NCBI GenBank assembly: GCA_018825765.1
Contig: JAHKAQ010000083.1
Span: 1-27,246 of the forward strand
DNA length: 27,246 nucleotides
From: Patescibacteria group bacterium
Lineage (GTDB): Bacteria; Patescibacteriota; Minisyncoccia; CAIUEV01; JAHKAQ01
Direction: 5' to 3'
Shown here one piece after another: positions 8,043 through 27,246 of this stretch. A model generated the notes under the pieces. It worked only from the letters and a program-made list of their open reading frames with translations, searched no databases and was not told where the DNA came from. Position numbers and translations under genes: made by a program. Each line of letters begins with the position of its first letter. Position 1 is the first letter of the stretch.

Positions 8043-8771
8043 ATGGCCCAGACTCTGCTTACCCGCTCAATTATTTTAGCTAAATTTAACGTTGGCGATT
8101 ATGACAACGCCTATCTTGCCCTTTCCCGAGACTACGGACGCCTGCGACTCTTCGCCAAAAGCTCAAGAAAGCCAAAAGCTAAATTAAGCGCTCATCTTGA
8201 ACCTGGAACATTTGTTTCTACCTGGTTTGTTCCTCGTTTTAACCGCGACAACTATTTAATTGTCGGCGCCAAAACAATTTTTAAACCCAACTTCCATAAA
8301 TTATCCAGCAATCAGAATAAAACAATTTCCAATACCCTTTTTCTAACCAGAAAACTAACTCAGGAAACAGAAATTGAACCAAACAATATTCAGGCCGGCT
8401 TTAAACTCCTAAAAAACTGCCTGGCGAATTATCTAAAACCTGGAATCTCCGCTAACGACCTTATTCTTTTTCAAACTGCCTATCTCTTAAAACTGCTTAA
8501 TTACGCCGGCTTTAAACCTGACTTCAAAAAATGCATCCACTGCCAGAAAAAAGTTTCCAATAATTCAAAAATCTATTATGATATAATAAATGGGGGAATT
8601 GCTTGTTGCGGCTTGGCGAATTCCCCGATAATCCCTCTTAACTGCTTAAAGCTGGCTAACTTTCTCCTCCTTAATCCCTTTTCGCGCGTCTCTAAATTAA
8701 AAGTCCACGCCCTGCTCGTAAAGAAAGTTTCAGCCATTGCCAAAAACCACTTACGATACTGCGTCGAATAG
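8043..8771 (+). CDS. recO: DNA repair protein RecO
   Basis: N-terminal OB-fold pattern (IILAKFNVGDYD...SRDYGRLRLFAKSSRK), helical middle, C-terminal PDFKKCIHC...GGIACC zinc-finger-like segment; 242 aa. Confidence 0.85.
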   Translation: MAQTLLTRSIILAKFNVGDYDNAYLALSRDYGRLRLFAKSSRKPKAKLSAHLEPGTFVSTWFVPRFNRDNYLIVGAKTIFKPNFHKLSSNQNKTISNTLFLTRKLTQETEIEPNNIQAGFKLLKNCLANYLKPGISANDLILFQTAYLLKLLNYAGFKPDFKKCIHCQKKVSNNSKIYYDIINGGIACCGLANSPIIPLNCLKLANFLLLNPFSRVSKLKVHALLVKKVSAIAKNHLRYCVE

Positions 8772-8793
8772 CCTGTTTTTCAATAAATACAAA

Positions 8794-10713: not shown

Positions 10714-10955
10714 AATTCATTTTAAAAATTATTGTTCTTAGCCTCTTAATCGCGGGATTCCTGTCATCCTTTAACCTTGATCGCGTCCAGCCCTCAGCTG
10801 AAATTAAAAATAAAACAAAAACTATCCTGAAAAATTCCGCTAAAAAATTAAAACAACTCATTTACAAAAAAGCAGCCAAAACAAACCCTCCGGGCGATAT
10901 TTTGCCTGATGAAATAGATGACAAATTGATTCATAAAATAAAAGAAATAAAATAA
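10710..10955 (+). CDS. Small hypothetical exported/membrane-anchored protein
   Basis: ATGA overlap with the upstream stop; N-terminal signal-like stretch MKFILKIIVLSLLIAGFLSS, followed by a Lys-rich tail. Confidence 0.65.
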   Translation: MKFILKIIVLSLLIAGFLSSFNLDRVQPSAEIKNKTKTILKNSAKKLKQLIYKKAAKTNPPGDILPDEIDDKLIHKIKEIK

Positions 10956-10964
10956 TCTTAAGGC

Positions 10965-10993
10965 TTGTTCTTTAAAAAAAAACATGCTTTAAT
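10965..10993 (+). promoter_or_regulatory. Candidate sigma70 promoter (extended -10) for the Wzz-like/DUF4012 genes
   Basis: TTGTTC (10965-10970), 17 bp, TG-C-TTTAAT (10985-10993), 33 nt upstream of ATG 11027. Confidence 0.5.
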
Positions 10994-11026
10994 TACTAGC
11001 TTAATATTTCTTTTATTTTTTAAAAA

Positions 11027-11818
11027 ATGACAAACTTCAAGCTTAAAGCTAAGTTTCTAGTTTTTATCAGTCTCCTGGCCGGGCTTATTTTTATTTTAAA
11101 AGGAATTCTTGCCCCGCCTTTTTACCAGTCAAGTTTTAGCGTTGTTCTTCTTCCCCAAAACATAGACTCCCGAAACGCCTCAAAAATACAGGATCAATCC
11201 GCGTTTTTCTCGTCTTTAATAAAACAAACCGTTCCAGGCAGTATTTTTCTTGAAAAAATAAACACCGAACTAAAATCATCCAATAGTCAGCGCCCAATAG
11301 ATGTCACTGCCAGCCAGTGGGCTCGCTCCATAAGCGTCCACCAAAATCCAAAATCTCAAATCCTTACCATTACCGCTTTTCATAAAGACCCCAAGCAAGC
11401 GGTTTTTTTTGCCGCACTCACCAGCCAAACTTTAAAAAATAATATCGCTCTTTTCACCAACAGCAACAATCTGGAAGCTAAGCTCATCGACCAGCCGCTC
11501 AAAGCCTCTACACCTGGAATTCTCTATTTCGCCGGTATTTTTTTCAAAGGAATCTTACTGGGAGCTCTTATCTCCTTTTTACTCATCCTTACCTTCAAGG
11601 AAAAAACCCTTGGCTGGCTATTCATTAAAAAAAAATATAAAATAAAACCCGAAAGGAAAAAGATCACAAAAAAACAACCCGAGCCCATTATTTCGCCTAA
11701 TCTCTCGTCCCGATCAATCACTCCTTTATCCATAAGCAAAACCAAAAAAAACCTGCAAACTTCTTCAGACCAGGAAATAAAGGAACGGCTTAATCGTCTA
11801 ATAAGCGGGGATCTTTAA
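11027..11818 (+). CDS. Wzz/CpsC/YveK-like polysaccharide chain-length determinant domain protein
   Basis: TM, then YQSSFSVVL...ILTITAFHKDPKQA...AKLIDQP, then a second TM and a basic cytoplasmic tail, the typical polysaccharide co-polymerase topology. Confidence 0.65.
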   Translation: MTNFKLKAKFLVFISLLAGLIFILKGILAPPFYQSSFSVVLLPQNIDSRNASKIQDQSAFFSSLIKQTVPGSIFLEKINTELKSSNSQRPIDVTASQWARSISVHQNPKSQILTITAFHKDPKQAVFFAALTSQTLKNNIALFTNSNNLEAKLIDQPLKASTPGILYFAGIFFKGILLGALISFLLILTFKEKTLGWLFIKKKYKIKPERKKITKKQPEPIISPNLSSRSITPLSISKTKKNLQTSSDQEIKERLNRLISGDL

Positions 11819-11820
11819 AC

Positions 11821-13230
11821 ATGAAAACAAGCGTTAAAATTTTACTTTTCCTGCTTTTTCTTACCACCCTGGCCAGCGCCTCCTGGTATTATTTTAAAAA
11901 CAGTGATTTTGGTCTTCTCAAAAAACTAAAGCCAACCCCGGCTGATTTATATAATAAAGATCAGGCTGACGCTAATTTCACTAATTTAAACTTTGTTTCA
12001 TTTACCAAAGAAATATCCGGAATAAACGGGCCAAGAACCTATCTGATCCTCTTTCAAAACTCCATGGAACTAAGACCCACTGGCGGATTTATCGGGTCTT
12101 TCGCTAAAATAAAAGTAGAAAATGGAAAACTCATAGAAAAAAAAACTTTTGATTCAGCTATTTTTGACCAAACCCTTCAAAACGCGCCTGAACCGCCGTA
12201 TTTTATCAAAAAATATCTTCATACTGATCAATGGGGCGTGAGGGATTCTAACTGGTATTTTGATTTCTCCTCCAGCAGTCAAAACGCTCTAAAGCTTTAT
12301 CATCTTTCCCCGGATCATAAAGATGATAAAATTGACGGCGTAATCGGCGTAACAACCAACATCCTGCCCTATCTCATTGAAAAAACCGGCCCCATAGAGC
12401 TTCCTGATATACAAGGACAATTCACTAAAGAAAACTGTATTGAAAAACTGGAATATGAAGTAGAATTGGGGTTTAGTAAAAGAGGAGTTGCGCGTCACCA
12501 AAGAAAAGACATTCTTAAAGAGCTGCTTGACATTTTATCCTCCCGGCTTACCCAAATCGGGAAATTGGAACAACTTTCCCTCCTAAAGGACCTGCAAAAA
12601 CTGCTCCAAAAAAAAGATATTCAGTTCTATTTTGAAAACCAGGACATGCAAAATTACGCCCTAAAAAATAACTGGGCCGGCGCCATAATTGCCGGCGCTT
12701 CTTATAACGACTATCTCGCCCTGGTAGATTCTAATCTGGGCGCGCTAAAAACCAATCGCTGTCTAAGCCATAAAATCACCTATCAGGTTGATTTTTCCGA
12801 CCCCAAAAATCCAAAAGCCAAAACCACAATAGACTACGCTAATAATTGCCGGGAAAAAAACTTCATGACCGATAATTACCACGGTTACACAAGGCTTTAC
12901 GTGCCGCTTAATTCCACGCTTGAAAGCGCCCAGGGATTTGACCAGGGAGCTCTGAATGAAATCACAAGCCCCAATGACCCCGCGTTGATCGAAACCACTA
13001 AAGATAAAAAAATATTCAGTAATCTGGTTTACGTGACGCTCAACAGCCAAAGAGCCTACAGTTTTTCCTACAAACTTCCTTCAACCATCAATTCTTCCAA
13101 TTATCAGCTGTATTTCCAAAAACAAGCCGGCCTGAATAACCCTCATCTCAAAGTGATCCTGAAAGAACAAACAAAAGAACAAATAATCTTTGACCAGGCA
13201 GTAGAAAAAGACACTCTGATAAAAAAATAA
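11821..13230 (+). CDS. DUF4012 domain-containing membrane-anchored protein
   Basis: RTYLILFQNSMELRPTGGFIGS, RDSNWYFDF, IDGVIGV and YTRLYVP motifs as recalled for DUF4012; N-terminal TM. Confidence 0.8.
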   Translation: MKTSVKILLFLLFLTTLASASWYYFKNSDFGLLKKLKPTPADLYNKDQADANFTNLNFVSFTKEISGINGPRTYLILFQNSMELRPTGGFIGSFAKIKVENGKLIEKKTFDSAIFDQTLQNAPEPPYFIKKYLHTDQWGVRDSNWYFDFSSSSQNALKLYHLSPDHKDDKIDGVIGVTTNILPYLIEKTGPIELPDIQGQFTKENCIEKLEYEVELGFSKRGVARHQRKDILKELLDILSSRLTQIGKLEQLSLLKDLQKLLQKKDIQFYFENQDMQNYALKNNWAGAIIAGASYNDYLALVDSNLGALKTNRCLSHKITYQVDFSDPKNPKAKTTIDYANNCREKNFMTDNYHGYTRLYVPLNSTLESAQGFDQGALNEITSPNDPALIETTKDKKIFSNLVYVTLNSQRAYSFSYKLPSTINSSNYQLYFQKQAGLNNPHLKVILKEQTKEQIIFDQAVEKDTLIKK

Positions 13231-13310: not shown

Positions 13311-14078
13311 ATGAGTCAAATAATTTCTTTGGTTAATCAAAAAGGCGGCGTAGGAAAAACAACTACCGCCATAAACATGGCTCAATATTTAGCTGAAGCC
13401 GGCCGTTTAGTGCTTCTTGTTGATCTTGATCCGCAAGCTAACGCCACCAGCGGAGTGGGTATAGACAAAAATAACATCCAATTTGGAATCTATGACTCCA
13501 TGATAAAACAAGTCCCCGTAGAGCGGGCGATTACCAAAATAAATTCCGTGGGCTATGACGTAATCCCGTCTTCTCCGGATCTTTCAGGCGCTTCCATAGA
13601 ACTTGCCCGCGCCAAACAAAGAGAATTCTGGCTCCATAGAATATTAAAAAACATAAAAAACAAATACGATTACATAATTATTGACAGCCCGCCCAGCCTT
13701 GATCTTTTAACCATAAACGGACTGGTCGCTTCAGACGGACTTCTGATCCCGGTTCAATGTGAATACTACGCGCTTGAAGGACTTAGCCGCCTGCTTGAAA
13801 CCATCACCCTTATAAGGAAAAATCTCAAGCCAAACCTTGATATAATCGGGGCTATTCTCACCATGTATGACAAAAGAAATAAGCTTGCCCGCCAGGTCGT
13901 AAAAGAAGTTCAGGATAATTTCCCGGGCCGCGTGTTTTCTTCAATTATTCCCAGAAACGTCAGGCTTTCTGAAGCTCCCAGCTTTGGCAAATCCATTCTT
14001 GGATTCGCCAGCCTCTCTAAAGGAGCCAAGGCCTATCACAACCTGGCCCGGGAACTTATCGAATTAGAAAAACAATAA
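13311..14078 (+). CDS. parA: Chromosome partitioning ATPase ParA/Soj
   Basis: NQKGGVGKTT deviant Walker A, DLDPQANAT, IIDSPPSL, PVQCEYYALEG, IPRNVRLSEAPSFG. Confidence 0.97.
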   Translation: MSQIISLVNQKGGVGKTTTAINMAQYLAEAGRLVLLVDLDPQANATSGVGIDKNNIQFGIYDSMIKQVPVERAITKINSVGYDVIPSSPDLSGASIELARAKQREFWLHRILKNIKNKYDYIIIDSPPSLDLLTINGLVASDGLLIPVQCEYYALEGLSRLLETITLIRKNLKPNLDIIGAILTMYDKRNKLARQVVKEVQDNFPGRVFSSIIPRNVRLSEAPSFGKSILGFASLSKGAKAYHNLARELIELEKQ

Positions 14079-14099
14079 TTTAGCATTTAAAACAAAAAA

Positions 14100-14993
14100 A
14101 TGGCGTCATCTAACGCGTTGGGCAGAGGCCTCTCCGCCCTGATTCCAGACAGTATAAAAAAAGACTTAAAACAAAAAAAACACCCTTCCAAACATCAGCC
14201 CGGGGAACAAAAAAGCGTCATTGAGCTGGAAATAAAAAAAATATCCCCTAACGCCAACCAGCCCAGAAGAAAATTCAACAAAGAAAATCTGGAATCCCTG
14301 GCTGAATCCATAAAAGAGTATGGCGTTCTTCAGCCTATCCTAGTCATAAAAAAAGGCCGGGAAGAATATGAAATTATCGCCGGCGAAAGAAGATACCGGG
14401 CCGCGAAAATTATCAACTTGGAAAGAATCCCCGCCATCATAAAACAAAGCGACCAGCAGAACCAGCTGGAATTAGCCATTATTGAAAATATTCAGCGGGA
14501 AAACTTAAACCCCATTGAAGAAGCGCGAGCCTATCAAAAACTCATGCAGGAATTCTCTCTAACCCAGGAAGAAATTTCAAGAAAAGTCAAAAAAGGCAGG
14601 TCTTCCATTGCCAATCTAATGAGATTTCTTACCCTGCCCCAGGAAATTCAAGACGGACTTATGGAAGGAAAAATAAACGAAGGCCACGCCAAAGTAATTG
14701 CCGCCCTGGATAATCCTCAGGCTCAACTGGCTCTATATAAGCAAACCTTAAAAGACAGTCTTACCGTGAGAAATATAGAAGAGATCGCCCAGGAAGTTTC
14801 GGTCCGGCCGCACAAAAGAAGAATCACTAATCAAACAAACAATCCGATTACCAGCCAGCGGGAAAAAATAATCTCCGACGCCGTTGGATTAAAGGTAAAA
14901 ATAAAGCCCAAAAAAAAGGGCGGGAAAATTATTATCGATTATTACGGAGAAAACGATCTCGATCGCTTTATCCAGCTGATAAACCAAAATTAA
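14100..14993 (+). CDS. parB: Chromosome partitioning protein ParB/Spo0J
   Basis: PNANQPRR, GVLQPILV, IAGERRYRA (CTP-binding), ENIQRENLNPIEEA, HTH segment. Confidence 0.96.
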   Translation: MASSNALGRGLSALIPDSIKKDLKQKKHPSKHQPGEQKSVIELEIKKISPNANQPRRKFNKENLESLAESIKEYGVLQPILVIKKGREEYEIIAGERRYRAAKIINLERIPAIIKQSDQQNQLELAIIENIQRENLNPIEEARAYQKLMQEFSLTQEEISRKVKKGRSSIANLMRFLTLPQEIQDGLMEGKINEGHAKVIAALDNPQAQLALYKQTLKDSLTVRNIEEIAQEVSVRPHKRRITNQTNNPITSQREKIISDAVGLKVKIKPKKKGGKIIIDYYGENDLDRFIQLINQN

Positions 14994-16495: not shown

Positions 16496-18454
16496 TTAAC
16501 CGGATATTTTTTTTAAAATCCCCAACTCGTCTCTGATCGCTATCGCCCGTTCAAATTCTAAATTATCCGCGGCTTTTTCCATTTCCTTTTCCATATCCTT
16601 TATCTGCCTTTGAATGTCAGTTATTTCTGTCATTTTCTGGTATTCACGGGGTAAATAATTTTTTTGTTTTTTCTTCTTCCCGGCAATGGAACGCACTCCT
16701 TTTTTTATAGTCTTGGGGGTAATTCCATACTTCTTGTTATACATCATTTGCTTTTTTCTTCTTCTACCTGTCTCTCTGGCCGCGGCTTCTATTGATCTGG
16801 TAATTTTTTCACAATAAAGAATCACTCTTCCTTTTACGTTTCTAGCCGCCCGGCCCATGGTTTGAATAAGAGACGTCTCATTTCTTAAAAATCCCTCGCT
16901 ATCTGCGTCAAGAATACCAACTAGCGTCACTTCGGGCAAATCCAAACCTTCTCGCAATAAATTAACCCCTACCAGTACCTGATATTTCCCGCGGCGTAAA
17001 TTATTAAGAATCCTGATTCTGTCCAAAGTCTCCACCCCTGAATGAAGATAACAAGCTTTTATTTTTTTTTCTTTCAAATAATCAGCCAGTTCTTCAGCCA
17101 TTTTCTTAGTCAACGTGGTTATTAAAACCCTTTCTTCTCTGGGCATTGTTTTTATTTCTTCCACTATGTTCTTTATCTGATTCTTACTCTTTCTTATTAT
17201 CAACTTCGGATCTAAAAGTCCGGTGGGACGGATTATCTGCTCTACTACCTTTACTGATTTTTTTCTTTCTGTCTGCCCTGGAGTAGCTGAAGTAAAGATG
17301 ATCTGACCTGTTTTTCTTGTAAATTCCTCGAATCTCAAAGGACGATTGTCAAAAGCCGACGGCAGGCGAAAACCATATTTCACTAAATTCTTCTTTCTTG
17401 AATAATCACCCTCGAACATTCCTCCAAGCTGGGGCAGGGTAACGTGTGATTCGTCAACAACAGTCAAAAAATTATCACCAAAATAATCCAACAGCGTGTA
17501 AGGAGCCTCTCCCGGCTCTCTGCCGGTCAAATAACGCGAATAATTCTCAATACCTGAAACATAACCCACTTCCCTTAGCATCACCATATCCTGCGTTACC
17601 CGACGTTCCAAACGTTCCGCTTCCAGATAAAGTTTCTTCCCTAAAAAATACTTTACCCGCCGCCGCATCTCTTTTAGGATTTGCGGAATAGAGCGCTCAA
17701 GCTCACCGGGAGAAACCACAAAGTGCCTGGCCGGAAAAATATCCAGATTTTCATGACAAACTCTTTTATCTCTTGATACTCCTGCAAATTCCTGAATTTT
17801 TTGAATTTTTTCATCCCTGAAATCAATCCTGTAAATCGCCTCGCCAAAAGGCGAGGCGATCTCAGCGCTTAAACCTCTTAGTCTAAAAGTTCCATTCTTC
17901 ATATCCTCACTTCTGGAATATCCAATGTCCACCAATCGACCCGCTAAATCATCCCTTTCCATAATCTGTCCCGCTCCTAATTTCAAAATATACTGCTTAT
18001 AGTTTATAGGATTTCCCAGGCCGTAAATACAGGAAACCGAACAAACAACAATCACGTCGCGCCTCGACACGAGAGAAGATGTAGCCGAGCCTCGCATCCT
18101 GTCAATTTCATCGTTTATTGAAGCGTCTTTTTCAATATAGGTATCAGAAGTCGGGATATAAGCTTCGGGCTGGTAATAATCATAATAACTGACAAAATAT
18201 TCTACCGCGTTTTTAGGGAAAAAATCACGAAATTCCTGCACTAGTTGAGCGGCTAGCGTTTTATTGTGAGCTATCACCAATACCGGCCGCTGTATCTTCG
18301 CGATTACATTGGCCACAGTGAAAGTCTTGCCTGACCCGGTTACCCCTAAAAGAGTCTGGTATTTTTTATTCTTATGAATAAGTCCGACCAGCTCTTTTAT
18401 CGCTCTTGGCTGATCTCCGGCCGGCTTAATCTTCGCTTGCAATTTAAACTTCAT
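16496..18454 (-). CDS. uvrB: Excinuclease ABC subunit B
   Basis: GDQPRAI, LLGVTGSGKT, FVSYYDYYQPEAY, VDESH, GVNLLREGLDLPEV, QTMGRAARN, C-terminal UVR domain. ATG 18454 (MKFKLQ) has AGGAG about 9 nt upstream and is preferred over 18520. Confidence 0.97.
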   Translation of the reverse strand: MKFKLQAKIKPAGDQPRAIKELVGLIHKNKKYQTLLGVTGSGKTFTVANVIAKIQRPVLVIAHNKTLAAQLVQEFRDFFPKNAVEYFVSYYDYYQPEAYIPTSDTYIEKDASINDEIDRMRGSATSSLVSRRDVIVVCSVSCIYGLGNPINYKQYILKLGAGQIMERDDLAGRLVDIGYSRSEDMKNGTFRLRGLSAEIASPFGEAIYRIDFRDEKIQKIQEFAGVSRDKRVCHENLDIFPARHFVVSPGELERSIPQILKEMRRRVKYFLGKKLYLEAERLERRVTQDMVMLREVGYVSGIENYSRYLTGREPGEAPYTLLDYFGDNFLTVVDESHVTLPQLGGMFEGDYSRKKNLVKYGFRLPSAFDNRPLRFEEFTRKTGQIIFTSATPGQTERKKSVKVVEQIIRPTGLLDPKLIIRKSKNQIKNIVEEIKTMPREERVLITTLTKKMAEELADYLKEKKIKACYLHSGVETLDRIRILNNLRRGKYQVLVGVNLLREGLDLPEVTLVGILDADSEGFLRNETSLIQTMGRAARNVKGRVILYCEKITRSIEAAARETGRRRKKQMMYNKKYGITPKTIKKGVRSIAGKKKKQKNYLPREYQKMTEITDIQRQIKDMEKEMEKAADNLEFERAIAIRDELGILKKISG

Positions 18455-18482
18455 GTATATTTTTCTCCTATTATCAAATAGC

Positions 18483-18491
18483 ATTCTAGCA
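18483..18491 (-). promoter_or_regulatory. Extended -10 promoter for uvrB-rel
   Basis: Minus strand TG-C-TAGAAT (18491-18483), 28 nt upstream of the uvrB ATG. Confidence 0.55.
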
Positions 18492-18529
18492 CTATTAAAA
18501 CGTTTTTTAAAACCATCCATCCAATAGAT

Positions 18530-18558
18530 TTGCCCGATCCAGGAATCTTCTTTAATAT
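18530..18558 (+). promoter_or_regulatory. Candidate sigma70 promoter for the isoprenoid operon
   Basis: TTGCCC (18530-18535), 17 bp, TAATAT (18553-18558), divergent from uvrB. Confidence 0.5.
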
Positions 18559-18583
18559 AAAATCATAAGCTTAACTATTTCTT

Positions 18584-19651
18584 ATGCCGGCTAAATCCAC
18601 CATGCAAAACCTTAAAAAACGCATTGACCAGCGGCTAAAGCTGTATTTCCAAAAAGAAATACAAAAAGCGGCCGAATTAGACCAAACATTCAGGGAGGCT
18701 ACCAAAATGGTGGCTGAATTTACTCTTAGCGGGGGCAAGCGGGTGCGAGCCGCCCTTATGTATTATGGCTATCTGGCCGGCGGCGGACGAAAAACAAACG
18801 CTATTCTTAACGCCTCTTTGTCAATGGAGCTGGTCCATAGCTTTTTAATTATCCACGATGATATCATCGACAACGACGAAGTAAGAAGAGGCAATCCCAC
18901 CCTTCACCGCCGATACCAAAAATTATTCCAACACTTAAAACTGCAAGAATCAGAAAATCTAGGCCGTTCCCTGGCCATGCTTTGCGGCGATACTGCCTAT
19001 ACCATGGCCAATCAAATCCTCTGTCAAAGCGACTTTGACGATAAACTAAAAATAAAAGCCATTGAATATTTCCAAAAAACCCTGGACCATACTTACGCCG
19101 GAGAAATTATGGAAATCATCAACCAGGCCTCGAAAAAAAACATCGACAGTAAAAAGGCTATTAAAATTTATAAATACAAAACAGCGAAATACACTATTGA
19201 AGGTCCGCTCACAATCGGCAGCATCCTGGCCGGCGCCAATCAAACGATTATTAACGCCCTTAAAGAATATTCGATATTACTTGGAGTCGCTTTTCAAATA
19301 AACGACGATCTTTTAGGAATCTACGGCAATCCCAATCAAATCGGCAAAGATATTGGCTCTGATCTAAGAGAAGGCAAGAAAACTTTATTACTAATAAAAA
19401 CACTTGAAAAAGCCAGTAATCCGGAAAAAAAACTAATAAAATCAATCCTGGGTAATAAAAAAATAACCGCGCGCAACATCAAGCGCTTTGGACAAATCGC
19501 CCAAAAAACCGGCGCTCTTTCTTACTGCGAAAGCCTGGCTAACAACTTATCAGTAAGAGCCAAGGAAATTATTCTTAATTCCGAAATATCCGGCCTGGCG
19601 CGCGACTTTTTCCTGGAAAGCGCCAACTACATTATTGAAAGTAAGCGATGA
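18584..19651 (+). CDS. Trans-polyprenyl diphosphate synthase (type I GGPP-synthase-like)
   Basis: GGKRVR, FARM HSFLIIHDDIIDNDEVRRG, YKTAKYT, SARM FQINDDLLG, GSDLREGKKT. Confidence 0.92.
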   Translation: MPAKSTMQNLKKRIDQRLKLYFQKEIQKAAELDQTFREATKMVAEFTLSGGKRVRAALMYYGYLAGGGRKTNAILNASLSMELVHSFLIIHDDIIDNDEVRRGNPTLHRRYQKLFQHLKLQESENLGRSLAMLCGDTAYTMANQILCQSDFDDKLKIKAIEYFQKTLDHTYAGEIMEIINQASKKNIDSKKAIKIYKYKTAKYTIEGPLTIGSILAGANQTIINALKEYSILLGVAFQINDDLLGIYGNPNQIGKDIGSDLREGKKTLLLIKTLEKASNPEKKLIKSILGNKKITARNIKRFGQIAQKTGALSYCESLANNLSVRAKEIILNSEISGLARDFFLESANYIIESKR

Positions 19652-20505
19652 AAATAATCCTCAGCCGACCCGCCGGCTTCTGCGCCGGCGTCCAAAGAGC
19701 CTATGATCTCATAAAAAACAATTACGCCCGAACCCAAAAACCCGTATACATCTTAGGCCGGCTGGTTCACAATACTCACATCATTCGCCGGCTCAAAAAA
19801 TGGGGGATAAAGACCATATCTAATCCTTATGGAATAAAAAAAGGCACTGTCATTATTCCAAGCCACGGATTTGACCCTAAAATTACCGCCCTTTTAAAAT
19901 CCAAAAAGATAAAGATCATCAACACGACCTGTCCCAAAGTTTCACAAGTCATGGCTAAGGCCCGTCTCTTAAAAAAACAATCAAAAACTATTCTCATTTT
20001 TGGGGATAAAAGCCACCCTGAAGTAAAAGCCATTAACCAGGCCGTCAACAATCAGGGTCTTGTCTTCTCAAATATAAAAGAATTACAAACTTTTCTAAAT
20101 ACAAAAATCGCCAAAAATCAGCGATTAAGCCTAATTTCCCAAACAACCCAGAACATTGATCACTTGAAAAGAATAAAAGAAATTCTTAGCGCTAAGACTC
20201 CCGGGGTTCAAGTTTTTAACACAATTTGTCCAGCCACCCACATTCGCCAGAATCAAGCCAAAAAATTAGCTAAAAAAGCTGACGTCATGCTTGTTATAGG
20301 CTCCCCAATCAGCGCCAATTCAAACCGGCTCTTCCAAATATGTAAAAAAAACAATTCCCGCGCCTTTTTTGTTGACAAAGCCGCCCAAATTAAGAAACAA
20401 TGGTTTAACGCTAAAGACGTTGTGGGAATAAGCACTGGCGCCTCCACGCCCCAAAATATAATAAAACAAATTATTAAAAAATTAAAAACATGCAAAAGCT
20501 CCTAA
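19648..20505 (+). CDS. ispH: 4-hydroxy-3-methylbut-2-enyl diphosphate reductase
   Basis: Three Fe-S cysteines (GFCAGV, TTCPKV, TICPAT) plus VHN, PSHG, HPEV, SQTT, SANSNRL and GASTP. Confidence 0.96.
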   Translation: MKIILSRPAGFCAGVQRAYDLIKNNYARTQKPVYILGRLVHNTHIIRRLKKWGIKTISNPYGIKKGTVIIPSHGFDPKITALLKSKKIKIINTTCPKVSQVMAKARLLKKQSKTILIFGDKSHPEVKAINQAVNNQGLVFSNIKELQTFLNTKIAKNQRLSLISQTTQNIDHLKRIKEILSAKTPGVQVFNTICPATHIRQNQAKKLAKKADVMLVIGSPISANSNRLFQICKKNNSRAFFVDKAAQIKKQWFNAKDVVGISTGASTPQNIIKQIIKKLKTCKSS

Positions 20506-21068
20506 ACTCTATTATTTTAAAAAATCAAAAATACGAAAAGCATAGAGAATCAGCCTTTATCCTGGCGCGATCCATTCAAAAGAACTCAAAAATGACTATC
20601 AGCCGCCTGCATTACGAAGATAACCAGCAAGCCGAAAAACTGCTCAAAGAAAACAAAAAAATGCTTAATCAACTTCTGGCCCTGCTCCCCAAAACCCCCA
20701 AGTTAAAATTTGAAGGTTTTATGCGCGAAGCCTTTGAAGAATTAACCGAGGCTTTATTATTTTTTAATTTTCAAACAAAAAATTCAGTCTCACTAGATCC
20801 CACTGATCTCAAGCAATTATCCCATGACTCTGATATTCTTATCGGCGGACTTTGCGATTTTACCGGAGAATTAACCAGAAAGGCAATCAGGCGCGCAAAA
20901 AAAAATAACAACCAGGAAATTAAAAAATATTCCCTTACTATCAACCAGATCGTAGAGCAATTACTAAAATTAAATCTTTCCGGCTATCTTCGCACCAAAT
21001 TCGACCAGGCCAAGAGAAACGCTCAAAAACTGGAACTTATCCTTTATGAGCAGAGAATAAGAAGTTAA
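20490..21068 (+). CDS. Translin/TRAX-family protein (C3PO-like), putative endoribonuclease
   Basis: RE..F.LARSI.KNSK..I..LH, AFEELTEA, GGLCDFTGELTR and LRTKFD...QKLE.ILYE match the helical pattern of the translin family. Confidence 0.85.
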   Translation: MQKLLNSIILKNQKYEKHRESAFILARSIQKNSKMTISRLHYEDNQQAEKLLKENKKMLNQLLALLPKTPKLKFEGFMREAFEELTEALLFFNFQTKNSVSLDPTDLKQLSHDSDILIGGLCDFTGELTRKAIRRAKKNNNQEIKKYSLTINQIVEQLLKLNLSGYLRTKFDQAKRNAQKLELILYEQRIRS

Positions 21069-21073
21069 TCCTT

Positions 21074-21784
21074 ATGAATATCGCTATTATTTGCGCGGCC
21101 GGAAGCGGCAAACGCCTAAAACGAAAAATTCCCAAAGCTTTGATTTCGCTTAATAAAAGGCCGATTTTTATTCATTGCCTTAAATCTTTTTTAAAACCCC
21201 AAAGTAGTATTGATCGAATTTTAATCATGGCGCCCAAATCTCACCTTAAAAAATTCTTCCAGCTGGTAAAAAAACAATTAACTAAAAAACAACAAGGAAA
21301 AATCATAGATATAATCCCCGGCGGCCAAGAACGGCAATTTTCAGTCAAAACCGGCCTGGAATACCTGAATAAAATAAAAACCAATCCTAATTCTCCGGTT
21401 CTGGTTCATAACGCGGCCAATATTTTCGTAAGCCCCGGAGACATTTTAGCCTGTCTTAAAGTTATAAAAAGAAACCAGGCCGCGGCCGTGGCTAAGCCCT
21501 GTCCTGACACTTTAAGGATAATCAACAAAAAATTAGAACCAATTAAAAAATTAAACCGCGAAATCATCTGGTGCATGCAAACTCCCCAGGGCGCCGCCTT
21601 TAAAATTTTAAAAAAGGCCCATAAAAAAGCAAAAAAAGAAAATTACCTGGGAACTGACGAATTAGAGCTCATTCAACGCATAAAATATCCGGCTAAAATC
21701 ATTCCTTCAAGCGGACCTAACTTTAAGATTACCTATCCCCAGGACCTTATCATCGCTCAAGCTCTGTTAAAATCTCACGCTTAA
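21074..21784 (+). CDS. ispD: 2-C-methyl-D-erythritol 4-phosphate cytidylyltransferase
   Basis: AAGSGKR...PK, GGQERQFSV, VLVHNAA, QTPQG, TDE, NFKITYPQDL; MEP operon context. Confidence 0.9.
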   Translation: MNIAIICAAGSGKRLKRKIPKALISLNKRPIFIHCLKSFLKPQSSIDRILIMAPKSHLKKFFQLVKKQLTKKQQGKIIDIIPGGQERQFSVKTGLEYLNKIKTNPNSPVLVHNAANIFVSPGDILACLKVIKRNQAAAVAKPCPDTLRIINKKLEPIKKLNREIIWCMQTPQGAAFKILKKAHKKAKKENYLGTDELELIQRIKYPAKIIPSSGPNFKITYPQDLIIAQALLKSHA

Positions 21785-21792
21785 AAACTGTC

Positions 21793-23613
21793 ATGCTCCA
21801 AAGAATAAAAACCCCAAAAGATTTAAAAAAAATCCCTGATTCCAAATTACCTGAACTTTGCCAGGAAATTCGTCGTTTTATTTTGAAAAATATTTCAAAA
21901 ACCGGCGGCCATCTAGCCTCAAATTTAGGCGTGGTAGAACTTACCATCGCTCTGCACAAACACCTGGACTGCCCTAAAGACCAGATTATCTGGGACGTGG
22001 GCCATCAAAGCTATGTGCACAAAATCCTTACCGGCCGTCAAAAAAAATTCCGCCAATTAAGACAACTTGGCGGTATTAGCGGATTTCCCAAAAGAGAGGA
22101 AAGTCCTTATGATGTTTTTGGCACTGGCCACGCCAGCACTTCAATTTCCGCGGCCATGGGCCTGGCTGAAGCCCGTAAAAAAAACAAACAAAAAACCCCG
22201 CGGATTGTAGCCGTGATAGGGGATGGAGCTTTTACCGGCGGCATCGCCCTGGAGGCCATAAACCAGATTGGCTATCTGCAAACTCCGGTAACCATAGTTT
22301 TAAACGACAATCGAATGTCTATCGCTCCCAATGTCGGAGCCCTGTCCCGCTACACTAAAAGAATCGAAGAAACCCAAGTCTACAAAAGAGCCAAGAAAGC
22401 TATTTACCTATTATCAAGAGATAAAACCTCAAAAACAAAAAAAAACCTGATAAACCTTCAAACCCTTAAGCGAGCCTTTAAAGAAGTGGGCACTCCCGGA
22501 CTTTTATTTGAAAAATTAGGCATAAATTATTTAGGACCGGTGGATGGGCACAATATTTCCCGAATCATTGAAGCTCTTAAAAGAGCGCGAAAGATTAACG
22601 GCCCGGTTCTGATTCATGTCCGCACTAAAAAAGGCATGGGCTATAAATTCGCCGAAAATCAAGCCGATAAATATCACGGGGTCCTGCCTTTTTCCTTAAA
22701 AACCGGCGCCTGCCTCTATTCTTCAGACCCGATTTCCTTTTCTCAAAGCTTTGGCCAAAAACTTCTCCAGTTAGGCCGAAAAAACAAAAAAATCATCGCC
22801 ATCACCTGCGCCATGCCTGACGGCACAGGCTTAAATCACTTTGCCAATGAACTGCCTGAACAATTTTATGACACGGGCATAACCGAACAGCACGCCGTAA
22901 CCTTCGCCGCCGGCCTGGCCGCGGCCGGAAAAAAACCCGTGGTAGCCATTTATTCCAGCTTCCTTCAACGCTCTTGCGATCAAATAATCCATGACGTCTG
23001 CCTGCAAAATTTACCAGTTATTTTCGCTATTGACCGCGCCGGCCTGGCCGGCGAAGATGGCCCCACCCATCATGGAGTATTTGACATAAGCCTGCTCCGC
23101 CCCATTCCCAATCTGATAATTATGGCGCCTAAAGACAATCCAGAACTTAAAGCCATGCTGGAACTGGCCCTGAAACTTAATCGACCGGTCGCTATCCGCT
23201 ATCCTCGCGGCTCCGGACAATCCTTAAAATTGCCAGTCTGGTGCGTTCCTCAAAAAACAGCCTTAAAAAAAGGAAAATCCCAAATAATAAACACCGGGAA
23301 AGACACAGTCATTATTTCAGTTGGCAATCAGCTCTGCCGGGCCATAACACTGGGCCGGCGCCGCAAAGTAAAACCCTCAATCATCAACGCCCGCTTCATA
23401 AAGCCCATTGATCCCGAAATCATCGCTTTCATTAAAAAAACCGGCCAGGCCACAATAATCGAGGAAAACGCGATCACCGGCGGTTTCGGCAGTGCTGTCC
23501 TGGAACAATTAGCTAAAAAAAATATCAACGCCCGGGTTAAACTCATGGGTATCGGCGACCAGTTCGTGGAACAAGGAACAGTCAATGAATTACAAAAAAA
23601 ATATCTCAAATGA
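21793..23613 (+). CDS. dxs: 1-deoxy-D-xylulose-5-phosphate synthase
   Basis: GGHLASNLGVVEL, DVGHQSYVHK, GHASTSIS, TPP motif GDGAFTGG...LNDN, GPVDGHN, DRAGLAGEDGPTHHG, IRYPRG. Confidence 0.97.
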   Translation: MLQRIKTPKDLKKIPDSKLPELCQEIRRFILKNISKTGGHLASNLGVVELTIALHKHLDCPKDQIIWDVGHQSYVHKILTGRQKKFRQLRQLGGISGFPKREESPYDVFGTGHASTSISAAMGLAEARKKNKQKTPRIVAVIGDGAFTGGIALEAINQIGYLQTPVTIVLNDNRMSIAPNVGALSRYTKRIEETQVYKRAKKAIYLLSRDKTSKTKKNLINLQTLKRAFKEVGTPGLLFEKLGINYLGPVDGHNISRIIEALKRARKINGPVLIHVRTKKGMGYKFAENQADKYHGVLPFSLKTGACLYSSDPISFSQSFGQKLLQLGRKNKKIIAITCAMPDGTGLNHFANELPEQFYDTGITEQHAVTFAAGLAAAGKKPVVAIYSSFLQRSCDQIIHDVCLQNLPVIFAIDRAGLAGEDGPTHHGVFDISLLRPIPNLIIMAPKDNPELKAMLELALKLNRPVAIRYPRGSGQSLKLPVWCVPQKTALKKGKSQIINTGKDTVIISVGNQLCRAITLGRRRKVKPSIINARFIKPIDPEIIAFIKKTGQATIIEENAITGGFGSAVLEQLAKKNINARVKLMGIGDQFVEQGTVNELQKKYLK

Positions 23614-24338
23614 AAATAACCCCTATAAAAACCAGAATCATCAATCCTCCCCGGGATAATATATATAAAATAATTGATCAATTCTGCCCCAAGCTTGTAA
23701 AAGGAGATGTTTTGGTTATTACCTCTAAAATAATTTCCATTCATCAGGGCCGCTGTTTGCCTGTTGATTCAGTAAAAAGCAAAGACAAGCTAATAAAAAG
23801 ACAGGCCGATCTGTTCATCTCCAGAAAAAAATCTCCAGGCCAACACGTAATTCTTACCCTCAAAAACAACACCTTAATTCCTTCAGCCGGCATCGACCAA
23901 AGCAACGCCCGCGGCCACTATATTCTCTGGCCTGAAAAACCCTACCAACAGGCCAAAAAAATCTGCCAGTATCTAAGAAAAAAATTTCACACCCCAAAGA
24001 TAGCCGTAATCATCACAGACAGCCACAGCACTCCTCTCCGTTACGGCGTGCTGGGAATATCCATCGGCTTTTTTGGCCTTTACCCCTTAAAAGACTATCG
24101 CGGGGAAAAAGACATCTTTAAAAAACCCCTGAAGTCCTCGCAAGCGAACATTATTGACGCCTTAGCCGCGGCCGCTACTCTGGTAATAGGCGAAAGCGAC
24201 CAGAAAACTCCCATGGCCCTGATTCAGGGAGCAAAATTTTTACGATTCACCAACAAAACAAACAAAAATGACCTGCTGGTTCCTCCCAAAAAAGACATTT
24301 TCTACCCCCTGCTTAAAACATTTTTTAAAAAACCCTAA
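23610..24338 (+). CDS. CofE-family gamma-glutamyl ligase (F420-0 ligase-like / chlamydial FolC2-type folylpolyglutamate synthase)
   Basis: ITSKIISIHQG, PSAGIDQSN, ITDSHSTPLRYG, DYRGEKDIF, NIIDALAAAATLVIGESDQKTP. Confidence 0.85.
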   Translation: MKITPIKTRIINPPRDNIYKIIDQFCPKLVKGDVLVITSKIISIHQGRCLPVDSVKSKDKLIKRQADLFISRKKSPGQHVILTLKNNTLIPSAGIDQSNARGHYILWPEKPYQQAKKICQYLRKKFHTPKIAVIITDSHSTPLRYGVLGISIGFFGLYPLKDYRGEKDIFKKPLKSSQANIIDALAAAATLVIGESDQKTPMALIQGAKFLRFTNKTNKNDLLVPPKKDIFYPLLKTFFKKP

Positions 24339-24342
24339 AATT

Positions 24343-24960
24343 ATGCCGCTTAATTTCTTATTATTTTCCGGCCAAAAAAAAAGACGCCCTGATAGACCGG
24401 AAAAACAAAAAAAAATAATCCTGATAAAAAATAAAAAAATTCCCTACACTTTAAAGCGCAGTTATCGGGCTCGCCATTTAAGTATCTCCATAAACAGCGC
24501 TGGAAAAATAAGCGCCACCTTGCCAAACTCTATCAGCCTCAGTAAACTTGAAGGCTTTATGCAAAGCCGGTCGAATTGGATTCAAAGAACCGTGTCCCGC
24601 GTCACCCGGACCCCTCCAAGCCTGCTGGAGCAGGGAACTCGCGATCAATTTCTAAAATCCAAATCCGTCGCCCGCCGCCTGGTTCTGGCAAAAATCCGCC
24701 ACTTTAATAAATATTATCAATTCCAGATAAACCGCGTCTTTATCCGCGATCAAAAAAGCCGTTGGGGCAGTTGTTCAGCCAAAAAAAATCTTAATTTTAA
24801 CTGGCGCGTTGTCTTTCTTGGCCAAAAACACCTTGATTATCTCATAGTCCATGAACTCTGCCATTTAGAACAACTGAATCATTCCCCAAAATTCTGGCAG
24901 TTAGTCGCCAAAACAATCCCTCAATTCAAACAAACAAGAAAAGAGATGCGTCAACTTTAA
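24343..24960 (+). CDS. YgjP/DUF45 (M48-like, zincin-motif) metal-dependent hydrolase
   Basis: RDQKSRWGSCS, LNFNWR, YLIVHELCHL (HExxH), NHSPKFW. ATG 24343 is preferred over the overlapping track start 24268. Confidence 0.88.
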   Translation: MPLNFLLFSGQKKRRPDRPEKQKKIILIKNKKIPYTLKRSYRARHLSISINSAGKISATLPNSISLSKLEGFMQSRSNWIQRTVSRVTRTPPSLLEQGTRDQFLKSKSVARRLVLAKIRHFNKYYQFQINRVFIRDQKSRWGSCSAKKNLNFNWRVVFLGQKHLDYLIVHELCHLEQLNHSPKFWQLVAKTIPQFKQTRKEMRQL

Positions 24961-24975
24961 TAATTTTTCACTAAT

Positions 24976-26169
24976 ATGAAAAAAATAGCCATTCTTGGCT
25001 CCACCGGATCAGTCGGCACCCAAGCGCTTCAAATAATAAAACAACATCCCAGTAAATTTAAGATTATCGGGCTTACGGCCAACACCAACACGCAAGCCAT
25101 GTTGGCTCAAATAAAAACTTTCCATCCCCAGGCCGTGGCCATGATGAATAAAGTTTCGGCCCGGGAATTAACCCGAAAAATAAAAACCCTGGACCGCCGA
25201 TACTCCAGAATAAAAATCTACACCGGCCTTCCCGGCCTTGTAAAAATCGCTACTCTCAACACAGCAGACATTATCCTGACTTCAGTTGTAGGCTCAATCG
25301 GCATTGTTCCTACCTTTGAAGCCATAAAAAAATCAAAAACCATCGCTCTCGCCAATAAAGAAACCCTGGTGGCCGCCGGTCAAATAATCATGCCGGCCGC
25401 GAAAAAATATAACGCAAAAATTATCCCGGTTGACTCGGAACATTCGGCTATTTTCCAGTGCCTTGTGGGAGAAAATCCCCAAAATATCAAAAACCTTATT
25501 CTAACCTGCAGTGGCGGGCCGTTTCGAAAAACACCGCCCAGCCGGCTAAAAAAAGTCACCCTAAAGCAGGCACTCAATCACCCCAGCTGGAAAATGGGCG
25601 GAAAAATTACCATTGACTCCGCGACTCTCATGAATAAAGGCCTGGAAGTGATTGAAGCCCACTGGCTTTTTGGCCTGCCGTATGAGAATATAAAAGTAGT
25701 GGTTCATCCTCAAAGCCTTGTCCATTCTATGGTTGAATTCAGGGATGGCTCCTTAAAGGCCCAAATCAGCCAGCCTTCCATGAGTATCCCTATTCAGCTC
25801 GCTTTTTCTTTTCCCCAAAGGCTTAAAAACAAAAAAATCCCGCGCCTGGACCTCTCAAGAAAAACCAGCGTCAATCAATTAAATCAGATGACTTTTGAAA
25901 AACCCGACTTTAAAAAATTCCCCTGCCTGAATCTGGCCTATAAAGCCGGCCGCCTGGGCGGAACTCTGCCGGCCGCCCTGAACGCGGCCAATGAAACAGC
26001 CGTTCAATACTTTTTACAGGGAAAAATAAAATATCTTGATATCGCGAACGTGATAAAAAAAATTATCAAAAAAAATAAACAAGTTAAAAACCCGAACTTA
26101 TCATGTATCCTGGAAACAGACAAAAAGGTAAAAGAGCAAACCAGGCAATTGCTTGATTCTCTCTGCTAA
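24976..26169 (+). CDS. dxr: 1-deoxy-D-xylulose-5-phosphate reductoisomerase (IspC)
   Basis: ILGSTGSVG, LANKETLV, PVDSEHSAIFQ, SGGPFR, HPSWKMGGKITIDSATLMNKGLEVIEA, NAANE. Confidence 0.98.
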   Translation: MKKIAILGSTGSVGTQALQIIKQHPSKFKIIGLTANTNTQAMLAQIKTFHPQAVAMMNKVSARELTRKIKTLDRRYSRIKIYTGLPGLVKIATLNTADIILTSVVGSIGIVPTFEAIKKSKTIALANKETLVAAGQIIMPAAKKYNAKIIPVDSEHSAIFQCLVGENPQNIKNLILTCSGGPFRKTPPSRLKKVTLKQALNHPSWKMGGKITIDSATLMNKGLEVIEAHWLFGLPYENIKVVVHPQSLVHSMVEFRDGSLKAQISQPSMSIPIQLAFSFPQRLKNKKIPRLDLSRKTSVNQLNQMTFEKPDFKKFPCLNLAYKAGRLGGTLPAALNAANETAVQYFLQGKIKYLDIANVIKKIIKKNKQVKNPNLSCILETDKKVKEQTRQLLDSLC

Positions 26170-26185
26170 TCATTTTTATTTTCTA

Positions 26186-26668
26186 ATGTTTAAAATCGGC
26201 CTTGGCCAAGATTCCCACGCCTTCACTGCTCAACCCAAACCGCTGGTATTGGGCGGGGTTATTATCAAAAACGCGCCCGGACTTAAAGGAAACAGCGACT
26301 GTGATGTAATTCTTCACGCCATTTGCAACGCCTTTGATATCGCGGCTCAAAAAGGATCAATCGCCGTCTATTCCGACCCTATGTGCCTAAAAAAAGGAAC
26401 AAACAACAGCGCCCAATACTTAAAACACGTCCAAAAAGCCGCGGCCAAAAAAAAATATAAAGCCATAAGCGCGAGCATCTCTATCGAAGCTAGGAAACCA
26501 AAACTCGAACCGGATTCAAAAGCCATTAAAGCCCGGCTGGCCCGGCTGCTTCAAATCCCCAAAGAAAACATAGGCTTAACCTTCACTTCAGGTGAAGGTC
26601 TTACCAGTTTTGGCCAAGGGCAGGGGATAATGGCCACGGCCCTTGTTGTTTTTTCTAAAATCACCTGA
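26186..26668 (+). CDS. ispF: 2-C-methyl-D-erythritol 2,4-cyclodiphosphate synthase
   Basis: IGLGQDSH, LVLGGV, GNSDCDVILHAICNA, TSGEGLTSFGQGQGI. ATG 26186 (MFKIG) is preferred over the track start 26153. Confidence 0.93.
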   Translation: MFKIGLGQDSHAFTAQPKPLVLGGVIIKNAPGLKGNSDCDVILHAICNAFDIAAQKGSIAVYSDPMCLKKGTNNSAQYLKHVQKAAAKKKYKAISASISIEARKPKLEPDSKAIKARLARLLQIPKENIGLTFTSGEGLTSFGQGQGIMATALVVFSKIT

Positions 26669-26672
26669 CTCT

Positions 26673-27246
26673 ATGCCCCAAATCATCTCTCAAAAACCAA
26701 ACCAGATTAGTCTCAAGGCCTGGGCCAAAATAAACCTTACCCTGGAAGTCCTTAAAAAAAGAAAAGACAGCTTTCATGAAATTCGCTCCATAATCACTCC
26801 TATTCCCTTATTCGATCTCATCAAAGTTAAACTTGTTTTCCCTAAAAAAAACACAACCACCGCTCCTCCTGAACCTAAGATCATTATAACCACAAACAAC
26901 AAACTGCTTGCCCGCGAGAAAAAAAATAACTGCTACAAAGCGGCTCAATTTATCACAAGCCGCCTGCCAAAAAATAAGATTCCCGCTTCCATAAAAATTC
27001 ACCTGGAAAAAAACATCCCGCTAGCCGGAGGCCTGGGTGGTTCAAGCGCTGACACCGCGGCCGTAATTATCGCTTTTGATAAACTATTTTCTCTTAAGCT
27101 TTCAAAACAAGAACAATTAAAAATTCTAGCTCGCTTTTCCAGTGAAGCCGCGTCTCTGCTTCCTGGCGTGATAATAACCCGGGGCAGGGGAGAAACAGCC
27201 CGAGAAATCACCCAAAAACCGCTTAAGCTTCCGCTCGTTTTAATAA
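26673..27246 (+). CDS. ispE: 4-diphosphocytidyl-2-C-methyl-D-erythritol kinase, 5' part (runs off the window; absent from the ORF track)
   Basis: Hand translation from ATG 26673 is open to the window end: MPQIISQKPNQISLKAWAKINLTLEVLKKRKDSFHEIRS...NNCYKAA...LEKNIPLAGGLGGSSADTAAV...TRGRGE. This has the GHMP-kinase loop and IspE N-terminal motifs. Confidence 0.92.
   Translation, partial: MPQIISQKPNQISLKAWAKINLTLEVLKKRKDSFHEIRSIITPIPLFDLIKVKLVFPKKNTTTAPPEPKIIITTNNKLLAREKKNNCYKAAQFITSRLPKNKIPASIKIHLEKNIPLAGGLGGSSADTAAVIIAFDKLFSLKLSKQEQLKILARFSSEAASLLPGVIITRGRGETAREITQKPLKLPLVLI

Follow-up and report, generated by a model that had tools for sequence, protein, structure and literature searches.

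Can a bacterium with a reduced genome make its own isoprenoid precursors from a single run of adjoining genes, and if so, how did it come by them? The question is raised by a 27,246-nucleotide (nt) contig of a Patescibacteria group bacterium (contig JAHKAQ010000083.1 of assembly GCA_018825765.1, forward strand; here called the window), which from position 18584 to its end carries genes of the MEP (2-C-methyl-D-erythritol 4-phosphate) pathway. By our gene assignments, all seven MEP enzymes, together with a trans- and a cis-prenyl diphosphate synthase, are encoded in one array of about 11 kb, and its host is a Moranbacteria-type member of the candidate phyla radiation (CPR) from groundwater, whose genome measures about 0.9 Mb. 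We are fairly sure of the overall explanation developed below, in which the array is a chromosomal operon inherited vertically within its family, and in which the origin of one gene, dxs, is shared with Woesearchaeota.

The array and its continuation beyond the window

Ten open reading frames (ORFs), all on the + strand, fill the window from 18584 to 27246, and the families that we assigned to them with Pfam and NCBIfam agree with the gene list of an initial annotation that had been made from the sequence of the window alone. Six MEP genes are among them. The ispH gene (19648 to 20505, 285 amino acids [aa]), for 4-hydroxy-3-methylbut-2-enyl diphosphate reductase, scores 268 bits against TIGR00216 (cutoff, 188) over the full model length. 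The next MEP genes are ispD (21074 to 21784, 236 aa), for MEP cytidylyltransferase (PF01128, 157 bits; TIGR00453, 174.4 bits with a cutoff of 181.3), and dxs (21793 to 23613, 606 aa), for 1-deoxy-D-xylulose 5-phosphate (DXP) synthase (TIGR00204, 754 bits; cutoff, 466). Farther downstream lie dxr (24976 to 26169, 397 aa), for DXP reductoisomerase (TIGR00243, 474 bits; cutoff, 316), ispF (26153 to 26668, 171 aa), for the synthase of 2-C-methyl-D-erythritol 2,4-cyclodiphosphate (MEcPP) (TIGR00151, 141 bits; cutoff, 116), and the 5′ part of ispE (26673 to 27246), which encodes the N-terminal half of the enzyme with its GHMP_kinases_N domain; 26673 is the called start, and the longest ORF begins at 26643.

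The initial annotation had noted that only ispG was not in the window. This is correct but incomplete, since ispG lies on an abutting contig of the same genome. The window makes up all of contig C119 in a metagenome-assembled genome (MAG) of 868 kb, which consists of 124 contigs and is 93% complete, with an estimated contamination of 3.3%. A neighboring contig of 2,071 bases, C47, starts with the C-terminal half of ispE (GHMP_kinases_C), continues with an ORF of 45 aa and ispG, and ends inside a gene for a uppS-type cis-prenyltransferase. The two halves of ispE are joined in frame by an overlap of 4 nt: the window ends with GTT TTA ATA A, and C47 starts with ATA ACT. A search for overlaps between contig ends at 15 nt or more gave no match, and the true overlap of 4 nt is shown only by a longer, independent contig. 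This is the Logan contig L061 (66,308 bases), in which positions 1 to 9071 equal window positions 18176 to 27246 and positions 9068 to 11138 equal C47, both at 100% identity. An NCBI contig of assembly GCA_043816685.1 (L062) agrees with the join, so that it is found in two independent contigs of 60 and 66 kb. At positions 8139 to 8896, L062 has one indel relative to C47 and the Logan contig, and its uppS is called at only 132 aa.

Extension of the contig thus recovered both ispG and uppS, with uppS downstream of ispG, and gives the full array as idsA-ispH-translin-ispD-dxs-cofE-like-ygjP-dxr-ispF-ispE-orf45-ispG-uppS. The complete IspE has 314 aa and scores 130.3 bits against TIGR00154 (cutoff, 138.7); the complete IspG scores 487 bits against NF001540 (cutoff, 345); and the complete UppS, intact at 236 aa in the Logan contig, scores 186 bits against TIGR00055 (cutoff, 110). 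Dxs, Dxr, IspF, IspH, and IspG are each above the NCBIfam equivalog cutoff over the full model length. For IspD and IspE, these families are by far the best ones, matched at full length and with the Pfam cutoffs passed, with scores slightly below the equivalog cutoffs.

The gene at the head of the array, idsA (18584 to 19651, 355 aa), encodes a short-chain trans-prenyl diphosphate synthase (PF00348 polyprenyl_synt, 187 bits). The best NCBIfam models for IdsA are those for farnesyl/geranyl diphosphate synthase, geranylgeranyl diphosphate synthase, and IdsA, at 170 to 200 bits, all far below their cutoffs. A type I (archaeal-type) geranylgeranyl diphosphate synthase would have DDxxD as its first Asp-rich motif, without an insertion, an aromatic residue at −5, and a C20 product; the first Asp-rich motif of IdsA is DDIID, with Phe at position −5. 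Three further genes of the array lie in the window. A translin-family gene (20490 to 21068, 192 aa; PF01997, 57 bits) stands between ispH and ispD. A homologue of the CofE-like gamma-glutamyl ligase (F420_ligase; 23610 to 24338, 242 aa) scores 133 bits against PF01996 and 214 bits against TIGR04132 (cutoff, 350). A gene with a YgjP-like metallohydrolase domain (24343 to 24960, 205 aa from the called start; PF01863, 135 bits) has the start called on the identical contig L061, the longest ORF beginning at 24268. Between ispE and ispG, the 45-aa ORF (L061 positions 9439 to 9576; C47 positions 372 to 509) overlaps the end of the one and the start of the other; its product is strongly hydrophobic and has no Pfam match.

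Past uppS, the same strand carries genes for thioredoxin and a TrxB-like reductase, then yceG and a gmk pair, and after these a GT2 glycosyltransferase gene, galT, and further genes. The thioredoxin and TrxB-like genes (L061 positions 11476 to 12783; TIGR01292, 304 bits with a cutoff of 343) directly follow uppS. The pair is kept in a related genome, L094, and ORFs of matching size are present in another, G005; nothing ties the pair to the pathway. The two tandem genes of the guanylate kinase family, downstream of yceG (L061 positions 13845 to 14975), likewise occur as a pair in L094.

The host of the array

In the upstream part of the window, uvrB and a relA/spoT homologue lie on the opposite strand, and then come parB and parA. 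The first 192 positions are the 3′ end of a bacterial 23S rRNA gene, followed by an ORF for a LAGLIDADG endonuclease (363 to 830). Between recO and parA (8737 to 13230) lie genes for a 658-aa DUF11-repeat protein and a DUF4012 protein and two ORFs (81 and 263 aa) without a Pfam match. Two other genomes of the family (G002 and G003) are named Candidatus Moranbacteria and a third is named Patescibacteria group bacterium, and the best matches of Dxs and IspG are to Moranbacteria/Patescibacteria MAGs. Together with the rRNA end and the LAGLIDADG ORF, these names place the contig in the CPR, as had been proposed, and in a lineage of the Moranbacteria type.

A MAG in 124 contigs with an estimated contamination of 3.3% could in principle hold a misbinned or chimeric contig, in which case the operon would be that of an ordinary bacterium. 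This is hardly credible here and is effectively refuted by the independent contigs: two assemblies give the same DNA on contigs of 60 and 66 kb, the 23S rRNA end with the LAGLIDADG ORF, an intron ORF typical of the CPR, is on the same contig as the operon, and Dxr, Dxs, and IspG all have their nearest relatives in Moranbacteria/Patescibacteria MAGs with the same flanking genes.

Packing and transcription of the array

The tight packing described in the initial annotation is confirmed. With starts as called on the identical contig L061, neighboring genes from idsA to ispE overlap by at most 17 nt and are at most 15 nt apart. The genes from idsA through ispG are co-directional, and over this longer stretch the largest overlap is 52 nt (or 19 nt if an alternative start of ispG is used) and the widest gap is again 15 nt, the arrangement of a single operon; the array is probably cotranscribed. 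The divergent intergenic region between uvrB (− strand) and idsA (+ strand) is 63 nt long (18521 to 18583) and is, by its position, the probable promoter region of the operon. The candidate promoter of the initial annotation, TTGCCC-17-TAATAT (18530 to 18558), is a weak sigma-70-like site that agrees with only 8 of the 12 consensus positions and was not listed by the promoter scan, and the 22 promoter-like sites of the region are not clearly above the number in shuffled sequences (mean, 16.1; standard deviation [SD], 4.0).

Gene order in the family and in other CPR bacteria

The operon has close counterparts in two genomes. G005, from a separate genus of the family and 99% complete, has uvrB followed by idsA-ispH-ispD-dxs-ygjP-dxr-ispF-ispE-orf45-ispG-uppS, with ORFs of the size of thioredoxin, TrxB, and YceG after uppS. 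Its IdsA, in the equivalent slot, is 62% identical to that of the window. L094, a single-contig genome of 1.2 Mb from the same Dxr clade, agrees in its backbone and in the genes downstream but carries other genes between dxs and ygjP. Its ispH and ispD (L094 positions 1 to 1375) are each called in two pieces (197 plus 68 aa and 155 plus 71 aa), which reflects either frameshifts or errors of long-read assembly.

The operons of G005 and L094, collinear in other respects, lack the translin gene; the CofE-like gene is absent from that of G005, and L094 carries other genes at that site. These two genes are thus insertions specific to the lineage of the window, and recent ones. The YgjP-like gene precedes dxr in both G005 (44% identity) and L094, and the 45-aa ORF between ispE and ispG is 51% identical in G005 and has a counterpart of similar size (53 aa) in L094; both genes are conserved members of the operon, the latter as a putative membrane protein.

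Clustering is not universal in the family. In each of G002 and G003, dxr, ispG, and dxs are on three different contigs, so the family has both clustered and dispersed layouts. The clustered layout has a single order in its three genomes and for that reason is probably the older one in the family.

Elsewhere in the CPR, two members of other families have ispH-dxr-ispD-ispF-ispE-ispG-uppS-dxs (G271) and dxr-ispD-ispF-ispE-ispG-uppS-dxs (G285), and three more (G070, G183, and G388) have ispG-dxr-ispD-ispF-ispE. Clustering is therefore the rule in MEP-positive CPR bacteria, and the exact order found here is specific to the family. That the order might be widespread in the clade, a possibility raised in the initial annotation as evidence against its own proposal, is thus true of clustering in general but not of this particular order.

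Distribution of the pathway

With the Dxr of the window as the query, matches were obtained in four of seven other genomes of the family and, among 33 genomes sampled from other families of its class, in none. IspG was present in all five further family genomes that were searched, including two without a Dxr match, and in seven of the seven family genomes checked overall, suggesting that the pathway is family-wide. Across the phylum, Dxr was found in 21 of 401 genomes (15 of them over the cutoff; approximately 4 to 5%), which agrees with the earlier statement that MEP is rare in the CPR; the Dxr-positive genomes fall into about 14 scattered families of this sample. HMG-CoA (3-hydroxy-3-methylglutaryl coenzyme A) reductase was found in 23 of the 401 genomes (approximately 6%) and UppS in 249 (62%; the tally includes the unpublished genome G190 and is 248 of 400 without it). 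By these tallies, about nine in 10 of the sampled CPR genomes show neither route to the C5 precursors, and most keep UppS.

In a complete, single-contig CPR genome of 1.2 Mb (L054, on G235:C1 at approximately 54.5 to 55.6 kb), the Dxr match contains three in-frame stop codons (TGA, TAG, and TAA); ispH is nearby and is the only further MEP gene within 10 kb, so that the pathway seems to be decaying there.

Phylogeny of the enzymes and the link to Woesearchaeota

In a Dxr tree of 130 sequences, the window falls within a clade of 17 that has 100% support and holds all the family genomes. In a Dxs tree of 129 sequences, it falls within a clade of 21 Moranbacteria-type sequences, again at 100%. This Dxs clade is part of an unresolved group with two Woesearchaeota lineages and a group of Omnitrophota and Spirochaetota, and the CPR families f87 and f140 fall outside the starred branch (98). 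Dxs sequences of Syntrophaceae, Treponema, Eubacteriales, and Bacteroidota (42 to 49% identity), which one search gave as matches, are not the nearest relatives, as that search missed both the family and the archaea; they supplied the reference bacteria for the trees described below. The ranking of IspG matches was uninformative, with flat identities of 54 to 60% outside the family and no archaea named among the best 120.

We compared the window with two archaeal contigs that carry archaeal ribosomal proteins and markers such as Spt4, eIF2-alpha, NMD3, or Cdc6. Both hold all seven MEP genes, in the order dxs-ispG-dxr-ispDF (fused)-ispE-ispH on one and as a tight operon, ispG-dxs-dxr-ispD-ispF-ispE-ispH, on the other; neither has a prenyl synthase in its MEP cluster. 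Identities to the proteins of the window, given for Woesearchaeota L075 versus CPR G271, are 57% versus 50% for Dxs, 50% versus 49% for Dxr, 35% versus 38% for IspD, 28% versus 29% for IspE, 39% versus 50% for IspF, 54% versus 55% for IspG, and 35% versus 40% for IspH. As the gene orders differ and the identities to the archaeal operon are no higher for most enzymes, the cassette as a whole does not seem to have been exchanged recently.

A concatenated alignment of Dxs, Dxr, IspG, and IspH, 1,628 columns long, covered 13 taxa, of which five were CPR, two were DPANN (Diapherotrites, Parvarchaeota, Aenigmarchaeota, Nanoarchaeota, and Nanohaloarchaeota), and six were named bacteria. With all four genes, the family joins a Woesearchaeota operon (support, 85/97). 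With Dxr, IspG, and IspH, the CPR (three families) form one clade (82/86) and the DPANN another (95/98), in a sister relation to it (92/96). In the tree of Dxs by itself, the family pairs with a Woesearchaeota sequence (100/99). In approximately unbiased (AU) tests, a single CPR clade was rejected for Dxs (P = 0.0025) and was not rejected for the four genes together (P = 0.061); a grouping of the family with Woesearchaeota was disfavored, but not rejected, for the other three genes (P = 0.0625). The split trees and the AU tests suggest that the operon is a mosaic, in which Dxs has a common origin with the Dxs of Woesearchaeota, through a transfer that may have gone either way, and the other enzymes are CPR-like. 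An exchange between CPR and DPANN, as first proposed, is thus consistent with the grouping of the family Dxs with that of Woesearchaeota and with the sister clades given by the other enzymes, but it does not extend to the cassette as a whole, which is not common to both.

These trees also bear on an older history. MEP might be ancestral to the CPR and vertically inherited, with losses in about 95% of lineages, so that the clustering and the sister relation to DPANN would reflect one old transfer from CPR to DPANN. The clade of CPR for Dxr, IspG, and IspH (82/86) with DPANN as its sister (92/96), the AU test that keeps a CPR clade on four genes (P = 0.061), and the core order dxr-ispD-ispF-ispE, which is common to many CPR families, are what such a history would leave behind. 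It has to accommodate the patchy occurrence of Dxr over about 14 scattered families of the sample, at least five changes in CPR that are forced at the starred branches of the 130-sequence Dxr tree, and a Dxs that is clearly not one CPR lineage, and the question was left undecided in the study of Hoshino and Gaucher (2018; PMC6107057). We therefore give it real but lesser credence, somewhat short of an even chance.

A more specific and rather speculative proposal, which we think improbable although worth stating, is that dxs was replaced from or donated to Woesearchaeota by direct gene flow between co-occurring CPR and DPANN symbionts and that the YgjP-like protein and the 45-aa peptide are real accessory factors of the pathway. 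If this were true, the array would be a natural minimal MEP module with added components, for example, for nucleotide or diphosphate turnover or for membrane tethering.

Chromosomal inheritance versus a mobile cassette

The initial annotation had suggested that the genes form a horizontally mobile cassette. The GC content of the operon (0.38 to 0.45) is like that of the remaining contig, there is no integrase, transposase, or relaxase gene in the window or in the 6.6 kb downstream, no tRNA gene was found in the window, and a search for flanking repeats gave only A-rich chance matches. The housekeeping flanks, uvrB upstream and trx-trxB-yceG-gmk downstream, are common to the lineage of the window, G005, and L094, and the Dxr and Dxs of the family each form one clade with 100% support. 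Mobility of the cassette is therefore unsupported.

Could the whole block still have been exchanged lately, as a unit, between CPR and DPANN archaea? Woesearchaeota likewise hold all seven MEP genes in a tight operon, their Dxs is the best match outside the family (57%) and groups with it at 100/99, and archaeal Dxr sequences rank directly after the family's own. Nevertheless, the archaeal gene orders differ and lack idsA and uppS; IspD, IspE, IspF, IspG, and IspH resemble their counterparts in other CPR at least as much as those of the archaeal operons; and CPR and DPANN are separate clades once Dxs is removed. The chromosomal flanks shared by both other clustered lineages, the ordinary GC content, and the lack of mobility genes, tRNAs, and flanking repeats point the same way, and we consider a recent exchange of the block very unlikely.

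Several observations weigh against our own interpretation of a complete, vertically inherited operon. By their profile scores, IspD and IspE appear divergent (174 versus 181 bits and 130 versus 139 bits, respectively). Terminator-like sites did not exceed those in shuffled controls, promoter signals did not rise above chance, and a gap of 95 nt before uppS holds a promoter-like site, so that uppS and the genes that follow it may have a transcript of their own. Three genomes of the family gave no match to the Dxr query, and Dxs was not found in three that are 91 to 92% complete; some members may have an incomplete pathway. Other CPR lineages lie outside the family clade in the 130-sequence Dxr tree, several of them on long branches, and this tree neither unites the CPR in one clade nor resolves the backbone. 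As only six reference bacteria were included in the concatenated trees, CPR and DPANN can be taken as sisters only provisionally.

Proposed function of the operon

Dxs condenses pyruvate and glyceraldehyde 3-phosphate; Dxr, IspD, IspE, and IspF lead on to MEcPP; and the Fe-S enzymes IspG and IspH yield isopentenyl diphosphate (IPP) and dimethylallyl diphosphate (DMAPP). The operon would thus encode the full route from pyruvate and glyceraldehyde 3-phosphate to IPP and DMAPP. IdsA would make a primer of presumably 15 to 20 carbons, which UppS would extend to C55 undecaprenyl diphosphate. The description of the cassette as self-contained is in this respect well founded, as the array holds the seven MEP enzymes and both prenyl synthases.

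Profile matches in the genome include BacA/UppP and two transferases of the MraY/WecA family, and MiaA is present. The operon would accordingly supply the cell's own lipid carrier for wall and glycan synthesis, and DMAPP probably for tRNA modification via MiaA. UbiA (PF01040) and PcrB/geranylgeranylglyceryl phosphate synthase (PF01884) were not found in the genome (93% complete). The visible sinks are hence the lipid carrier and tRNA prenylation, and there is no support for quinones or archaeal-type lipids as sinks. The lipid carrier autonomy ascribed to this organism is a fair inference, given that its genome holds users of the C55 carrier.

Neither HMG-CoA reductase, as a marker of the mevalonate route, nor flavodoxin (PF00258) was found in the same 93% complete genome. 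It encodes two small ferredoxin-type proteins with two [4Fe-4S] clusters and an [FeFe]-hydrogenase; as no flavodoxin was found, a ferredoxin is the likely reductant of IspG and IspH. The large subunit of the hydrogenase (G000:C13, positions 968 to 2794, − strand; 609 aa) has N-terminal ferredoxin-like domains.

Comparison with known isoprenoid gene clusters

MEP is known to be sparsely distributed in the CPR, the MEP enzymes of DPANN form a clade with those of CPR and FCB (Fibrobacteres-Chlorobi-Bacteroidetes) bacteria, and synteny with MEP genes is frequent for the prenyl synthase genes of bacteria (Hoshino and Gaucher 2018; PMC6107057). Colocated MEP genes have been described in 52 Woesearchaeota (Castelle et al. 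2021; PMC8204110), and Woesearchaeota ispDF has been found to be most related to that of Candidatus Nealsonbacteria (Huang et al. 2021; PMC8421398). Our literature search on isoprenoid genes in Moranbacteria or on natural single MEP operons found nothing relevant. Sparse MEP in the CPR and clustered MEP in Woesearchaeota are thus already published, and current views are not overturned. Modestly new are the layout of all 13 genes, the two prenyl synthases included, a Dxs with an origin of its own that Woesearchaeota share, and the measured gap in the CPR between UppS, which is often kept, and the C5 pathway, which is rare.

The Moranbacteria-type family would count among the few CPR lineages that can produce IPP and DMAPP and, from these, an undecaprenyl carrier of their own. 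With 62% of CPR genomes keeping UppS and about 10% having either C5 pathway, the question is where the others get their IPP. The array also offers a compact natural template for pathway engineering, with seven MEP genes and both prenyl synthases in about 11 kb, and its mosaic dxs is a datable case of gene sharing between CPR and DPANN.

In Escherichia coli and Bacillus, ispD and ispF are paired, dxs is with ispA, and dxr is with uppS or cdsA. The array shares with this canonical bacterial layout the seven enzyme families and the placing of prenyl synthase genes beside MEP genes, a known tendency (PMC6107057); in the six reference bacteria, however, dxs, dxr, ispG, and ispH are on different contigs or many kilobases apart, whereas here they form one array of about 11 kb. 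Other CPR MEP clusters are more similar, with the same enzymes clustered, often with uppS, and a common clade for Dxr, IspG, and IspH. The Moranbacteria-type family differs from them in that ispD is apart from ispF, dxs is in the middle of the operon, and idsA is at its head, in the YgjP-like gene and the 45-aa membrane ORF inside it, and in a Dxs of different origin. The mevalonate operons of CPR Microgenomates (Hoshino and Gaucher 2018) resemble the array in that a complete C5 pathway lies together with a trans-prenyl synthase gene, but the pathway is nonhomologous, and the present genome has no detected HMG-CoA reductase. Closest in kind are the MEP clusters of Woesearchaeota (PMC8204110; PMC8421398), with seven colocated enzymes in a reduced genome, relatives mostly without a C5 pathway, and, in one operon, the Dxs nearest to that of the family outside the family itself. 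These clusters differ in their archaeal host, in gene order, in the fusion of ispD and ispF in many of them, and in having no trans- or cis-prenyl synthase, and five of their seven enzymes are no closer to those of the family than are those of other CPR, so that the operon described here is not of the Woesearchaeota type.

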